DNA of 64,000 nucleotides, from positions 57,908,001 to 57,972,000 of the forward strand of contig OX597814.1 of NCBI GenBank assembly GCA_951406725.2, in the 5' to 3' direction. How positions within the stretch are numbered: the first letter of the stretch is position 1; the number at the start of each line of letters is the position of its first letter. Shown here one piece after another: positions 7,932-59,454 of this stretch. The DNA comes from Octopus vulgaris. Its lineage: Eukaryota. The notes beneath the pieces are model-generated. The model was given only the letters and a program-made list of their open reading frames with translations, searched no databases and was not told where the DNA came from. Made by a program: the position numbers and the translations under genes.

Positions 7932-8206
7932 TATTCCTTTGGTCCACGGAAGCAATTTAAGTAATCTTGGATGTTATTATGAGAGCAATCAAACTTTTCG
8001 AGTATGAAGGAGCTACAAGTAGATACAATTATGAAAATATATCTTTTACTGTCACACATTTTTGTCATACATTGAAAGACAAGTTAGCAGAGTTGTTTGA
8101 GAATCTAACAGAATGACTTGATTCTATACTTGAGAGATGAGGAATTATGTATATTATTCACATTATTTACATTTGACGGACATTTGTCTCCATCTTTTTT
8201 GTTGTC

Positions 8207-8252
8207 AACACAATGTTTCAGCTGATATACTCTTCAGCCTTCATCAGGTGTC
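8207..8252 (-). ncRNA. Hammerhead ribozyme motif, family H1 (stem III altered)
   Basis: GACAC-CUGAUGA-A-GGCUGA..UCAGCU-GAAA-CAUU-GUGUU. Confidence 0.65.
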
Positions 8253-8474
8253 CTGGGGCAATTTGGAACCTGGGTTCTCATTCCTAAGGTAATTTTTCGA
8301 TGTTATTATTATTATTATTATTATTATTATTATTATTATTATTATTATTATTATTATTATTATTCAGGTCACCGTCTGGAATAACATCAGGACAGTATCC
8401 AAGAATAATACAACACTTCGCAAATATATACTTCGTGTAAACCACCAATAGAAGAGAATATAACCAAATACAAC

Positions 8475-8780
8475 TCGTATTCCATTCCATGCAGCTGTGG
8501 TAGGTTATACAAAGGCGAAACTTGCCGCCACCTCAAAATAAGGGTAGAGGAATATCCCAAAGCTGTGACATGGGGAGATATTGATGAATCAGGTATAGCT
8601 GATCATGTATGGAAAAATAGAGACCACCTCCCCCTGTCAGATGAAGTTAAAATAGTAGACAGAGAACACCACTGGAAAATACGAAAACTAAAAGAGGCAG
8701 CACATGTGCTGGGACCTCCTAAGCAGACCTAGTGCAGATATGAGTATTATATGGGAACTGGTATTAAGGAAGTATAGGAA
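8475..8780 (+). pseudogene. Penelope-type GIY-YIG endonuclease fragment
   Basis: Manual translation: SYSIPCSCGRLYKGETCRHLKIRVEEY...SGIADHVWKNRDH...VKIVDREHHWKIRKLKEAAH. Confidence 0.85.
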
Positions 8781-8827
8781 AATATTAGATTTATAAACCC
8801 AAAAATTCACTCCATATTTGCCCACTG

Positions 8828-8895
8828 CTATATGGTATAGTGTTTGAGAGCACGAGTACTAACCCCGAGATTGCGAGTTCTATTTCAGGCTGTGA
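8828..8895 (+). promoter_or_regulatory. tRNA-like segment (Pol III A/B boxes) inside the PLE 3' region
   Basis: tggtatagtgtttgag...gagttctatttc; the sister copy at 18567-18588 (-) has the B box GAGTTCGACTCC. Confidence 0.55.
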
Positions 8896-8966
8896 CCTGA
8901 GTAACAATAATAATAACATCAGAAGAAAACCTTAGGAATGGGAATCCGGGTTCGAAATTCCCGCTG

Positions 8967-9012
8967 GACACCTGATGAAGGCTGGAGAGTACATCAGCCG
9001 AAACGATGTGTT
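8967..9012 (+). ncRNA. Hammerhead ribozyme motif, family H1 (cleavage triplet mutated)
   Basis: GACAC-CUGAUGA-A-GGCUG..CAGCC-GAAA-CGAU-GUGUU. Confidence 0.65.
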
Positions 9013-55381: not shown

Positions 55382-55429
55382 AAAATCTGTTACTCTGAGT
55401 TTCTCGTTGCCGTTCATCAGACAGTTTTT
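55382..55429 (-). ncRNA. Type I hammerhead ribozyme, family H10 (sense copy)
   Basis: CUGU-CUGAUGA-aCG gcaa CGa-GAAA-CUC a GAG-UA-ACAG; stem I extends (aacaaaa/uuuuguu); triplet GUA. Confidence 0.78.
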
Positions 55430-55577
55430 GTTAGAATGGAACCAATATATCAATTTAATCCAGACTCTTACAAACGCTACACCTTTACAACATAAACTTG
55501 CTTGATTGGCCCTTTAGAAATAACGGTCAATATTCGAGCGATAAATAAAAAATGAGCTCAAAAATATATATATATAT

Positions 55578-55990
55578 GAGTGGCTGTGTGGTAAGTAGCT
55601 TGCTAACCAACCACATGGTTCCGGGTTCAGTCCCACTGCGTGGCATCTTGGGCAAGTGTCTTCTGCTATAGCCCCGGGCCGACCAATGCCTTGTGAGTGG
55701 ATTTGGTAGACGGAAACTGAAAGAAGCCTGTCGTGTATATGTATATATATATAAGTGTGTGTGAATATGTTTGTGTGTCTGTGTTTGTTCCCCTAGCATT
55801 GCTTGACAACCGATGCTGGGGTGTTTACATCCCCGTCACCTAGCGGTTCGGCAAAAGAGACCGATAGAATAAGTACTGGGCTTACAAAGAATAAGTCCCG
55901 GGGTCGAGTTGCTCGACTAAAGGCGGTGCTCCAGCATGGCCGCAGTCAAATGACTGAAACAAGTAAAAAGAAAAAGAAAAAGAAAGAAAG
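55578..55990 (+). mobile_element. SINE family C inserted in the left PLE arm only
   Basis: Near-consensus copy in a (TA)n run; absent from the matching point of the right arm (about 58600-58630). Confidence 0.9.
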
Positions 55991-57017
55991 ATATATATAT
56001 ATATATAAAAATTATGAAAATTATAAAATTCGAGGAAAAACCTTACATTGAGCAAAATACATATTGACGTTAAAGAAGGAAATATAATTAATACATGGAA
56101 ATTAAAATGCATTATAAATATTACACTGCAATACATATTCATATTAAAGTGTACATATATATATCAACATACACAGAAGGATGCGTGCAAACGCCATACA
56201 TATACAGATGTATAAATATAAATCTAAAATATACACACAAATGCATGCACACATATGTATACGCAATCTATCTCGCACGCAAGTTAAATCATGGATACTA
56301 ATGTAGCGTTCCTTATTTACGGAGCAAAGCTTAAGACATAAGTAAGTGAGGGGGACGTAAAGTTGTATGCACCAGTATCATATAGTTAGAGAAAAAAACG
56401 AAAGAAACGAAGAGAGAGAAAAAGAAATGAAGAAGGGGGAAGGAAAAAAGAAAAAGGAGGAGTGAGGAAAAAACGAAATAAGAAAAATTATGTATACAAC
56501 TGTGTAACCACGTTATTGACATTTATATAGAGACAAGTATACAAACACACAAGTTCAAATGGATACATACACATACAGTCGTGTATGTGTGTGCTTAAGC
56601 ACAAACATACGCTCACTTACACATACACAGAGACGCATGCTTACAAATACATATCCATGGCTATACACATATTTACATCAAAATTCTAATTTTTGACAAC
56701 ATTGCTTTTTTAAAATATTGGTGAGTGTAATAATGAAAAATATACGAAAGACATAAAATATAACACCCTATTTTGGATCATCTATAAATTAAAAACCAAA
56801 GTAATCCTATACAATACAATAACATGAAATAAACAAAGCCGAAGGTTTTTCCTAAGGTATATGTAGAAATATAAACAAAATAAACAAAATATATGCATGA
56901 GACTTTGCTATACGGAATGAAATCTGCATAGCGCGAAACAAATCCATCGTCGCGTTTACATACTAGTCCAAGAGTCAAAATCAAAATTTCAAACATCAAA
57001 AATACAAAATATATACT

Positions 57018-57810
57018 CTATCTATATGGTATATTTATATTTGACATTTTAAATTTGGTTGCGTGTCTACATAAGTTCATCAGCTCACTTCTTTGATTCA
57101 AAGAATTATTGTCTTTGAATAAAATATACAGTTTCTCTAATAGTCAAAGATTGCACTTAAAATTATTCCTGTGTGCTCTATGCCTGTATGGTGCCGCTCT
57201 GTCCAGAATGCTCCATGTCACGTTGAAAGGTGGGGTTTCCTTTTCTTTTAGTTCCCAGGCATATTTTGCTAGGCTGGTCCTCTTCCTATTCTCTGGGTAT
57301 CTAAATGAATTTTTATGCGAATAAAATCGTGTTTTAAACGAATTTTCTGAAGCCCCTGTATATGTCTTGTATTCCGATGAGCCTTCTATTTGTACCTTGG
57401 CTCTATAAACTACTCCTTTTACTAGACATTTCCCTTCTAACGGACAGGAGGTTTCATTTTTGCAATTGCATTTCTTAATGGGCTCGGCACCATGTTTAAT
57501 CTCAATCAGATTCCTATTATGCTGGCTAATGTAAGGGGCGAAATTTCTGCAACAAGAATAGCTAACCTTCAGGGTTCTTCTATTAAATACCCTATAGAAT
57601 TTATGGCCCTGCTTAAAATGCTTAGAGACTAATCTCAAAAATTCCTTACCTATATTAGTCTTTACGGCCAAATTGAAAGCCGGGTTGAACCACAAAACTT
57701 TCCTGGTCCTAGTTCTTCGTGCAGCATTATTATCAGCATTAAGCTGGCTGTATTGGATCTTCTCAGAGAATCCACTATTCTTTAATGCGCTATCGTACAG
57801 AGAAATATGA
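57018..57810 (-). pseudogene. Penelope-like ORF C-terminus (linker plus GIY-YIG endonuclease), one in-frame stop
   Basis: WFNPAFNLAVKTNIGKEF..CNC..CPLEGKCL..GVVY..YTG..FKTRF..H..CNL*LLEKLYI..LNQRSELMNLCRH. Confidence 0.92.
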
Positions 57811-58768
57811 AAGAAAAAAATACTTTGATTTTTAATTTATAGATGATCCAAAATAGGGTGTTATATTTTATATGTCTTTCGTATATTTTTCATTATTACA
57901 CTCACCATTTTTTAAAAAGGGCAATGTTGTCAAAAATTAGAATTTTGATGTAAATATGTGTATAGCCATGGATATGTATTTGTAAGCATGCGTCTCTGTG
58001 TATGTGTAAGTGAGCGTATGTTTGTGCTTAAGGCACACACATACACGACTGTATGTGTATGTATCCATTTGAACTTGTGTGTCTATATACTTGTCTCTAT
58101 ATAAATGTCAATAACGTGGTTACACAGCTTGAATACATAATTTTTCTTATTTCGTTTTTTCCCACTCCTCCTTTTTCTTTTTTCCTTCCCCCTTCTTCGT
58201 TTCTTTCGTTTTTTCTCTAACTATATGATACTGGTGCATACAACTTTACGTCCCCCTCACTTACTTATGTCTTAAGCTTTGCTCCGTAAATAAGGAACGC
58301 TACATTAGCATCCATGATTTTAACTTGTGTGCGAGATAGATTGCGTATACATATGTGTGCATGCATTTGTGTGTATATTTTAGATTTATATTTATACATC
58401 TGTATATGTATGGCGTTTGCACGCATCCTTCTGTGTATGTTGATATATATATGTACACTTTAATATGAATATGTATTGCAGTGTAATATTTATAATGCAT
58501 TTTAATTTCCATGTATTAATTATATTTCCTTCTTTAACGTCAATATGTATTTTGTTCAATGTAAGGTTTTTCCTCGAATTTTATAATTTTCATAATTTTT
58601 ATATATATATATATATATATATATACATATATATTTTTGAGCTCATTTTTTATTTATCGCTCGAATATTGACCGTTATTTCTAAAGGGCCAAGCAAGCAA
58701 GTCCATTTTTTAAAGGTGTAGCATTTGTAAGAGTTTGGATTGAATTGATATATCGGTTCCATTCTAAC

Positions 58769-58817
58769 AAAAACTGTCTGATGAACGGCAACGAGAAACT
58801 CAGAGTAACAGATTTTG
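58769..58817 (+). ncRNA. Type I hammerhead ribozyme, family H10 (inverted copy)
   Basis: ctgt ctgatga acggcaacga gaaa ctcagag ta acag. Confidence 0.78.
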
Positions 58818-59454
58818 TTGAATTTTCTGCTGCTTTAAATAAAGTATATATATTTATGTATACATATATACACACATACATGCATATATGTAGACACACA
58901 CTCACACACACATATATGTACGTATGTATATGTATATAAAATTTTAAGACAAATAAATGAAGAAAAACAAATGAGTTGCCAGTGGCATGTATAAGGACAC
59001 TAATAATGAATAAAATCATAATAATTCGGAGTAGGCAACAGTATGTTTATAACGTCAACAGAGAATAAATTCTTACATTGTTGAAGTTGTATTCATCTCC
59101 AAATGAAAAATAAACAGATATCTCGTAACTATTGCGACCGATTCCAAATGAGAAATTCCAGTTGAGAAAATCGCAATAATCTAGAATTCTCAATTTTATT
59201 GAGACAAGGGGATACTGTGGTCACTGGATTTTGCCTGAATGGGCATTATCAACACAGCAGCTATCCAGCATTGATTCCAAAATTCACGAGATTAGAGATG
59301 GATTGGAAGAGAAGTGTACACTTACGGATGAGAGTACACTAACGCATAAGGAGCTAACGGAAATGACTAAGAGAGGCTAATTACAATGCAAGTTTACTTT
59401 TCGGTTAGTTGAAATTATCTTCCCGTTGAGACAGAAAAGTAAACGAATGGCAAA

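Follow-up and report, generated by a model that had tools for sequence, protein, structure and literature searches.

Type I hammerhead motifs in Penelope-like element 3' ends and ORF-less tandem units at an Octopus vulgaris locus

Hammerhead families in the window

The window, a 64,000-nt stretch of Octopus vulgaris contig OX597814.1, holds insertions of Penelope-like elements (PLEs) and short ORF-less units, with type I hammerhead motifs on both strands (Table 1). An earlier note had listed 17 such sites, and by homology 16 of these are copies of repeated families (A, B, C, D, E, F, H, I and J), so that the motifs are real where they were reported; the span of the motif begins at exactly the listed coordinate in seven cases (8207, 8967, 10896, 18361, 22935, 44461 and 47164). 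The remaining site, 23279- (site G), is unconfirmed as a hammerhead, a consensus hammerhead being found in 0/7 of its weak copies. The full family core and stems are present at 8/17 sites (10896-, 11287+, 18361-, 44461-, 47164+, 54351-, 55382- and 58769+), and another eight are decayed (8207-, 8967+, 22935+, 12322-, 55147-, 12435-, 12586+ and 17712+). Since D and F form one lineage, the nine repeated families in the window represent eight lineages. The earlier picture of about 10 unrelated families sharing only the catalytic core was thus correct in that the families are many, but not in their number or in the independence of D and F. All four stem III palindromes it quoted are found in the window.

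Set against shuffled sequence, the control named in the earlier note, the window is enriched in motifs. In a relaxed type I scan with 40 local dinucleotide shuffles as control, 10 motifs reached a score of at least 10 (shuffle mean 0.875, maximum 3) and four a score of at least 14 (none in shuffles), with no family confirmed for the matches at 40919- and 35126-. A strict scan, requiring exact core and paired stems and permitting one extra base, left two sites that meet textbook rules (10896- and 18361-) versus none in 30 shuffles, and only one site if the extra base after A9 is barred. By extrapolation there would be roughly 130,000 near-intact motifs genome-wide, about 1 per 21 kb, and about 30,000 strict ones, the density in the window being 3-5 times that of the genome. 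The estimate of one motif per 4 kb therefore holds in the window if decayed copies are counted, and overestimates the genome 3-5 fold. Rfam hammerhead families gave no match at the gathering threshold in the window and nine loci, in agreement with the proposal of a large hammerhead complement missed by annotation. At E<=10, no hammerhead was present among the 150 of 312 window matches listed, which include microsatellite-driven miRNA matches.

Table 1. Features of the window; clade labels are assignments from sequence
Feature	Position	Strand	Remarks
Family A insertion	8122..9060		Penelope/Poseidon type, with 3' pLTR
Family A inverted arm and tail	8122-8302		then (TTA)n
Hammerhead A, decayed	8207..8252	-	C11.1 to T; ACGT to ACAT
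Family A endonuclease remnant	about 8365-8800	+	5'-truncated
Hammerhead A, decayed	8967..9012	+	U16.1 to A
Family B unit	10755-11173	-	~486 nt, ORF-less; part of 10755..11273
Hammerhead B, intact	10896..10959	-	stem III AUCACAGGUGAU; predicted cut after 10902
Family B inverted segment	11170-11273		part of 10755..11273
Family C unit	11264..11567	+	~486 nt, ORF-less, 5'-truncated; joined to B segment
Hammerhead C, family form	11286..11345	+	C.C opposite at 10.1/11.1; palindrome AUUGAUUCAAU
Hammerhead D, decayed	12304..12341	-	Neptune, A6U lineage; deletion
Family E fold-back	12399..12685		Hydra clade; two decayed hammerheads
Hammerhead E, decayed	12436-12490	-	stem I broken
Hammerhead E, decayed	12587-12641	+	two core changes
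Hammerhead F	17711..17745	+	sister of D; this copy G5A; unit 17642-17805
Family A fold-back, left tailed arm	18272-18610		carries hammerhead 18361..18406
Hammerhead A, intact minimal form	18361..18406	-	ACGU; predicted cut after 18366
Family A fold-back, right arm	22871-23027		nested LINE parts it from left arm
Hammerhead A, decayed	22935..22980	+	A6C, stem mismatches
Site G, old low-copy repeat	23276..23326	-	stem II, GAAA, ACGAUCGU-like palindrome; lacks intact CUGANGA; unconfirmed
Family H fold-back	44376..47231		young Hydra-clade element; tail at left end only
Hammerhead H, family form	44461..44511	-	U.U at 10.1/11.1; 4-bp stem III with palindromic loop
Hammerhead H	47164..47214	+	identical to 44461-44511
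Family I unit	54137..54785		~354 nt, ORF-less; partial tandem and inversion
Hammerhead I, family form	54350..54394	-	C.A at 10.1/11.1; palindrome ACUGCAGU
Hammerhead D, decayed	55149..55184	-	A6U lineage; unit 55073-55240
Family J fold-back	55349..58849		Hydra clade; encloses 5'-truncated endonuclease ORF; tail extends left of 55349
Hammerhead J, family form	55387..55424	-	A.A at 10.1/11.1; palindrome ACUCAGAGU
PLE endonuclease-region remnant	57144..57836	-	Hydra clade; 230 aa, stop-to-stop
Hammerhead J, other arm	58774..58811	+	motif identical to 55387..55424

Elements that carry the motifs

The consensuses of A, B, C, E, F, H, I and J share CUGANGA, stem II, GAAA and UH within stem I, and form an intact hammerhead in A, B, E and F. 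Stem III is ACGU in A, D and F, and a perfect or near-perfect palindrome of 8-16 nt in B, C, E, H, I and J. An extra base after A9 accompanies a G10.1-C11.1 pair in A, D and F; B and E have no such base, and C, H, I and J are mismatched at 10.1/11.1, as published for Hydra-clade motifs. Stem pairing was followed in a small set of family I relatives (16 related rows, picked by core pattern), where two-sided stem changes occur in 4/14 pairs and 92% of cells are paired versus at most 46% in slid controls, so that compensatory changes of the kind looked for at the outset are present in this family.

In families A, D, E, H and J the hammerhead lies in the pLTR, 3' of an RT/GIY-YIG ORF, which supports the Penelope-like origin suggested previously. 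Because these five adjoin PLE coding sequence, the fold-backs are mostly truncated autonomous elements, contrary to the earlier view that the motifs spread mostly by short non-autonomous fold-back units; only B, C and I are ORF-less. The window insertions of A, E, H and J have the PLE-type combination of 5' truncation, inversion, a one-sided tail and an AT-rich or microsatellite target, and fold-back arms run inward to a variable centre of 0.4-8.6 kb. A tail is present at exactly one end in 15/15 distinct H insertions (excluding a mixed pairing of two H insertions, L200, and a duplicate row, L183) and in 3/3 J fold-backs, in a count that has no rows for A or B and ambiguous rows for I. Family A is the 3' end of a Penelope/Poseidon-type PLE, with RT upstream at two loci (L065/L077) and a coding remnant at 30/30 loci, these having been chosen with the remnant in the query; such remnants occur at 6/25 E loci, 11/25 J loci and 4/60 positions of a fixed-position comparison sample. 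A reading of 18361- and 22935+ as LINE terminal repeats was ruled out, as the same arms bracket the PLE remnant at 8122-9060. Families E, H and J appear from their endonuclease regions to be the 3' ends of Hydra-clade PLEs, carrying WFNPP..., KVSYSC and CNC...CPL motifs that by eye match the Hydra-1_Ajap and Hydra-2_Amil rows. No RT of these families was recovered at the loci examined, and Pfam gave no match for the remnant in the J fold-back. The H fold-back of the window has identical 253-nt arms around a microsatellite-rich 3' region, and coding remnants of H were found in the centre at L185-L187.

Families B, C and I, each unit with one type I hammerhead, are tandem units resembling retrozymes. 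Direct (tandem) partners were found at 15/29, 7/19 and 19/24 loci, respectively, and PLE-style inversions at 12/29, 8/19 and 14/24; partial tandems occur in these three families and in D, and B, C and I arrays are short, with up to about 2.6 units seen. No PLE ORF was found near B (0/30 loci) or I (0/25), and the matches at 5/20 C loci are untied to C, two of them being an adjoining D element. A single two-ribozyme ambisense unit comprising 10896- and 11287+ was rejected, the window copy alone spanning both, as was regular co-insertion of B and C (C in 0/29 B loci; B in 2/19 C loci, overlapping). Short contig pieces from four runs, guessed to be RNA, cover the family B unit, with no ends, strand or level readable.

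A Neptune lineage with an altered core

Family D is a variant rather than a canonical PLE minimal hammerhead. The invariant A6 of the CUGA turn is absent, the core being CUGUNGA (A6U) with 16,332 exact matches; U6 is found in 96 of the first 100 listed among these and in 23/26 copies selected by flank, and the consensus of family F keeps the canonical A6. This fixed core was absent from the earlier note. Family D is probably the 3' end of a Neptune PLE, and F is assigned by its kinship to D. Both repeats of a full-length Neptune element of pLTR-ORF-pLTR structure (L191) contain D, and further D copies follow the ORF on its 3' side in L349, L350 and, twice, L348. The L191 ORF matches Pfam RVT_1 (E 3e-8) and, below the cut-off, GIY-YIG (E 0.005), and set by eye against rows of Craig 2021 Fig. 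S it matches the Neptune clade in its DKG motif, RT, CxxxxCxxC linker and C-terminal two-cysteine GIY-YIG; a PDB sequence search with the protein gave 0 matches. Between the consensuses of D subfamilies the flanks diverge by about 21%, whereas the 28 motif columns vary only at N7 and H17, with C3, U4, G5, G8, A9, GAAA and U16.1 fixed and H17 being U, A or C, rather than G, in 81/82 copies; as the copies were picked by a pattern covering part of the motif, this test of conservation is partly circular. The D region is also present in contigs from four runs, which bear four organism labels, and depth there peaks over the motif; the variant table, which misses even common N7 states, was unused for position 6. 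We slightly favour the view that D is a slowed ribozyme still in use. That the A6U hammerhead is still active as a dimer, or with the element's own RT protein bound, is a more tentative suggestion.

Possible function and relation to published hammerheads

It is likely (probability about 0.85) that the type I hammerheads in PLE 3' ends and in the three protein-less tandem units are slow, dimer-dependent self-cutting RNAs. Homodimer cofolds are more stable than two monomers for 9/9 consensuses, in agreement with the proposal that palindromic stem III suits dimers. Any self-complementary RNA gains energy when dimeric, however, and monomer minimum-energy folds are predicted to be mostly unlike the hammerhead fold, which counts against this reading. 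Two copies may pair through the palindrome and exchange stem I strands, and a tandem transcript would be cut into units, probably with help from the element's own protein. Reverse transcription would then have two internal starting points on the 3' side of the cut, each giving rise to one end of the insertion, and would leave 5'-truncated head-to-head copies with hammerheads facing outward. Such one-sided tails have been described for PLE insertions (PMC8557442) and are explained by two start sites (PMC11167929). The distance from the motif to the element 3' end is at most about 25-150 nt, so that almost all truncated insertions retain it, hence the high density, and inserted copies would decay neutrally. 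B, C and I would likely be copied in trans by the same PLE enzymes.

The function of PLE hammerheads is an open question in the literature (PMC8557442, PMC11167929), and the motif could instead be kept as a pairing or protein-binding structure with catalysis dispensable, D being catalytically dead yet spread. The near-fixation of U6 in D would suit this, as would U4C, which is fixed in C and F subfamilies and frequent in I and J. Catalytic mutants insert in vitro with no reduction and no RNA reads end at the cut (PMC11167929), Naiad elements spread without canonical hammerheads (PMC8557442), and a mutational scan found little activity in CUGA-turn mutants (PMC9901934), a result that speaks against an active D. 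However, D holds the other constrained core positions and varies only where the catalytic fold predicts, and a natural A6C hammerhead retains low activity (PMC3088659), so that we consider dispensable catalysis unlikely. Less likely again is a trade-off in which A6U serves a second pLTR signal that overlaps the motif, for instance a 3' splice site with its long pyrimidine tract and AG, and catalysis suffers somewhat: the D motif lies 3' of a U/C-rich tract that U6 lengthens, one D subfamily reads CUGUAG and the D. virilis Penelope intron ends at helix I (PMC4209133), but N7 takes all four bases and AG at 7-8 is thus not kept.

Other alternatives concern the elements themselves. Units of 354-486 nt in tandem resemble the mussel and coral retrozymes that give abundant circRNAs (PMC7229834), and B, C and I might on this basis be host-useful producers of circular RNA rather than passengers of Penelope enzymes; this seems improbable given their short arrays and PLE-style inversions, with no sign of host function. 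The 95-100% identity of H arms resembles that of terminal inverted repeats, but an origin of the fold-backs as MITE-like DNA transposons, or as chance hairpins resembling hammerheads, is contradicted by their variable centres, tail at one end, GIY-YIG-type remnants in the centres and partial tandems, and by the scarcity of motifs in shuffles, and has very little probability.

The landscape as such is expected in an invertebrate genome rich in PLEs, and any novelty of it falls away, as massive multi-family, opposite-strand minimal hammerheads were published in Cervera 2014; the class, its palindromes, opposite-strand pairs and the U-U mismatch are likewise known (Cervera 2014; Craig 2021). Families A, D and F fit the min-HHR type of Cervera and De la Pena 2014 (PMC4209133), which has a type I fold, ACGU-type palindrome, extra base after A9, G10.1-C11.1, U-rich 5' flank, a U3-A8 variant and many families per genome, occurring singly or as pairs on opposite strands separated by 100-700 bp. 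Stem II of D and F is similar to that of the Acropora digitifera Neptune row there, and the rows compared in its Fig. S3 include no cephalopod and no U6. Its counts of 2,000-9,000 per genome by a strict descriptor compare with about 30,000 strict motifs here, in a larger genome and with a different scanner. Among the papers listed on Penelope hammerheads in octopus and cephalopods, only Craig 2021 and a giant-squid genome paper were relevant, the former listing an octopus Hydra-clade hammerhead (PMC8557442 File S2, Hydra-1_oBim). The Hydra-clade hammerheads of that file (also Hydra-2_aMil and Penelope-1_HM) resemble those of the octopus Hydra-clade families in their 8-10-nt palindromic stem III (ACUCNGAGU, ACUAUUAGU, ACAG..CUGU), U opposite U before stem II, (TA)n targets and endonuclease motifs; J matches Hydra-2_aMil in stem I and in the type of palindrome, and E shares its palindrome with Penelope-1_HM. 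The E, H and J sequences themselves are not in File S2, and H stands apart from its entries by a microsatellite-rich 3' region of ~2.4 kb and by palindromes that reach 8.6 kb, and J by a stem II of 2 bp and by A.A at 10.1/11.1. Metazoan non-LTR retrozymes (PMC7229834; bioRxiv 10.64898/2026.07.22.740005) are, like B, C and I, units repeated in tandem, a few hundred bases long, that lack an ORF and carry one type I hammerhead each, but the octopus families are mostly monomers with short partial tandems and inversions. At 486 nt, B and C exceed the 170-400 nt of PMC7229834 and fall within the 51-972 nt of the preprint.

What our analysis adds is a count of order 10^5 motifs in at least 19 families, together with clade labels, and the unusual part is the A6U core of family D. 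Perreault et al. 2011 reported natural core variants including A6C (k below 0.1 per min), U3-A8 and U10.1-U11.1 (PMC3088659), as single or rare sequences, whereas in the octopus A6U is fixed in a lineage of high copy number whose sister keeps the canonical core; no A6U hammerhead was found in print, in a search that brought up one paper on twister and did not cover Lunse 2017. Family H, a very young element whose insertions strictly have a single tail, is usable for studying PLE end formation. Together with their canonical sisters, the U4C subfamilies and the A6U lineage form matched natural pairs for testing PLE hammerhead function, and D, its sister F and the full-length Neptune element make the need of PLEs for a ribozyme directly testable. 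If D is active, protein or dimer context would relax a core position that is invariant in free hammerheads.

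Motifs, families and density

The strict type I scan of the window returned 2 motifs against 0 in 30 local dinucleotide shuffles, and the relaxed, scored scan returned 10 motifs with a score of at least 10, where 40 shuffles gave 0.875 on average. The excess over shuffled sequence that the earlier note proposed as a control is therefore present in both scans, and the positions it had listed coincide with motif edges. Eight of its 17 sites have the form of their family, 8 are decayed and 1, site G, is unconfirmed. The Rfam search that it had also suggested gave no hammerhead at gathering level in the window or in nine further loci. 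Each unit was used as a genome query, and from 935-6065 first-look candidates about 40 places were scored for each of the families A, B, C, D, E, F, H, I and J; site G gave 7 places only, all weak, and their consensus contains no hammerhead. Hammerhead positions are numbered by the usual convention. The consensus of copies is an intact canonical hammerhead in A, B, E and F, is intact apart from a non-pair at 10.1/11.1 in C, H, I and J, and has the core CUGUNGA in D. By clustering and tree D and F fall in one group, and the window as such holds eight lineages; many families are indeed present, but not the roughly 10 unrelated ones that had been claimed.

The compensatory changes anticipated for the stems were seen among sixteen relatives of I, where two-sided change occurs in 4 of 14 pairs, spread over stem I, stem II and the palindrome, and 92% of cells are paired compared with at most 46% for slid controls. 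The covariation score was reached by 0 of 500 shuffles and the pair count by 14 of 500, which is supportive rather than a P value, since the rows are related and were selected by pattern.

The window covers positions 57908001-57972000 of its contig, in a genome that is 2.8 Gb, rich in AT and microsatellites, and made up of about 30 large contigs. Sixty 10-kb stretches at round-number positions on 30 contigs (599,900 bases) contained 35 motifs with a score of at least 10, where four shuffles contained 5-7, and also 7 strict motifs, where the shuffles contained 0. At genome scale this would amount to about 134,000 near-intact motifs and about 33,000 strict ones (Poisson range 9,000-61,000). The 10 motifs in the window are more than the 3.7 expected (P 0.005). 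Counted by homology, the nine families were found at 32 sample places, 1 per 19 kb compared with 1 per 4 kb in the window. As these families were defined from the window itself, the comparison is tilted toward it; one motif per 4 kb does not hold as a genome rate. A large and diverse complement does hold: the loci that were fetched, 1.64 Mb in all with a bias to the queried families, contain 280 distinct matches in 19 clusters with at least two members, and 11 of these clusters had not been used as a query. Diversity in this genome is not exceptional beside that of a coral, where type I motifs number more than 6,000 and form 16 families (PMC7229834).

Carrier elements and insertion form

The relatives of A at L065 and L077 reach upstream into a Penelope/Poseidon-type RT. 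The J fold-back encloses a 230-aa endonuclease remnant, and the same endonuclease type accompanies E in 6 of 25 loci and H in L185-L187; these remnants appear, by eye, to match the Hydra-clade rows of Craig 2021 (PMC8557442). Locus L191 is a full-length element (pLTR, frameshifted ORF, pLTR) with D in both direct repeats and the ORF order DKG, RT, cysteine linker, GIY-YIG, which by these motifs is of Neptune type; D also lies 3' of such an ORF in L348-L350. The units of B, C and I, which occur in tandem, measure about 486, 486 and 354 nt, and a Penelope-like element (PLE) ORF is absent within about 1.5 kb in 30 B loci and 25 I loci.

The arms of a fold-back lie head-to-head, their hammerheads point outward, and a single end carries a tail. 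The single tail was seen in 15 of 15 H fold-backs, in 3 of 3 J fold-backs and in the A, E, H and J fold-backs of the window; this arrangement is the published PLE insertion form (PMC8557442). Taken with the coding remnants, it indicates that coding elements, inserted in truncated form, account for most of the supposed short non-autonomous fold-back units.

Several further observations concern these repeats. The best 40 genome matches of H are 100% identical over 216 nt, and its palindromic insertions (L181-L189 and the window) span 0.4-8.6 kb, with kilobases of microsatellite within the element; further Neptune-type elements are nested in, or adjoin, H insertions at L188 and L200. PLE families cluster in (TA)n tracts: 7 of 19 C loci also contain D, where about 4% would be expected. 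SINE-like repeats are numerous across the window. Together with the A arms, the near-complete LINE looks like a single 4.7-kb element whose inverted ends bear hammerheads. The family switch in the B fold-back, at a shared word, suggests, in this single case, that the template changed from one ORF-less RNA to another within one insertion.

Features of the window
Position	Strand	Feature	Detail
8365-8800		GIY-YIG-type remnant	A hammerhead lies 3' of it
11170-11273 / 11264-11567		B fold-back right arm	C to B switch at ~10-nt shared word
18690-22790	+	LINE, presumably R4/Dong	near-complete, frameshifted; RT E 7e-31; restriction-like C-terminus; in (AAT)n centre of an A fold-back
38285-39712	-	LINE RT piece	another LINE (E 1.6e-10), with 40705-41073
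39773-40116		several short A-tail copies	without hammerhead
40705-41073		LINE RT piece	with 38285-39712
43276-43373		hairpin from 3' flank of one U3-A8 cluster	motif absent
44376-47231		H palindromic insertion
55578-55990		SINE-like repeat	inserted in J left arm

Family D and other core variants

With positions 6-7 left open, the exact D pattern matches the genome 16,332 times, compared with 0 for the reversed control, and a looser pattern matches 20,209 times. Among the first 100 matches listed, position 6 is T in 96, A in 2, C in 1 and G in 1, and all four bases occur at position 7. T6 was also found in 23 of 26 copies picked by downstream flank alone (28 less two non-informative rows). Between four D subfamily consensuses the flanks diverge by about 21%, with 38 of 104 columns variable, while N7 and H17 are the sole varying columns among 28 motif columns. 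The test is partly circular, as the pattern used to collect the copies itself includes some of the motif. Of the sister groups, F keeps A6 and others fix U4C.

U4C (CCGANGA) is fixed in whole subfamilies of C (L039, L041-L043) and F (L024, L270, L293) and common in I (L210, L217) and J (L089, L094); it is a second recurrent core variant, and CpG decay could blur its direction. A U3-A8 covariant core forms at least four clusters in flanks (L006, L017, L264, L276, L278, L303), with palindromes ACCGGU, ACGCGU and AAUU. Units of D and F share a conserved word, CCYGAGCG, 25-35 nt 3' of the predicted cut; by pairing with the stem II 3' strand it could give an alternative fold, or it could serve as a protein site.

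Mechanism and relation to known systems

Our analysis shows the sequence, the structure potential, the families, their position and the insertion form. Beyond these, two copies would pair as a dimer through the palindrome, tandem transcripts would be trimmed by cleavage, each insertion end would have its own reverse-transcription start site, and copies would decay neutrally after insertion; B, C and I would be copied in trans. Cleavage by minimal PLE hammerheads is weak and confined to multimers (PMC4209133). In an anole element the hammerhead needs protein to cleave, and reverse transcription begins at two internal sites, accounting for the tail (PMC11167929). Catalytic mutants of that element still insert in vitro (PMC11167929); that catalysis is dispensable here is nonetheless rather doubtful in our judgement. 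An origin in DNA transposons or by chance, to be set beside the shuffle controls and the one-end tails, is very improbable.

Both CUGA-turn mutants (PMC9901934) and a natural A6C hammerhead (PMC3088659) have low activity, and D is therefore predicted to be a slow ribozyme. All its other constrained positions are conserved, which speaks for a fold that is still in use; that D is active in a dimer or protein context is a tentative proposal, short of even odds. An overlap of A6U with a splice site would be another reading of the same substitution, and an unlikely one. No A6U hammerhead was found in the literature searched; Lunse 2017 treats variants of PLE hammerheads and may include U6 among them.

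A and F are additional members of the minimal PLE hammerheads. E, H and J join the Hydra-clade type, for which long palindromes and the U.U mismatch are already tabulated, together with an octopus example (PMC8557442). B, C and I would work like non-LTR retrozymes; that they are instead circles useful to the host is improbable. D would work like a minimal PLE hammerhead, but it lacks the invariant A6. The observation is real and mostly known: the window is locally dense and its families are new, but they belong to a class already published. The high-copy A6U lineage is the sole departure from that class.
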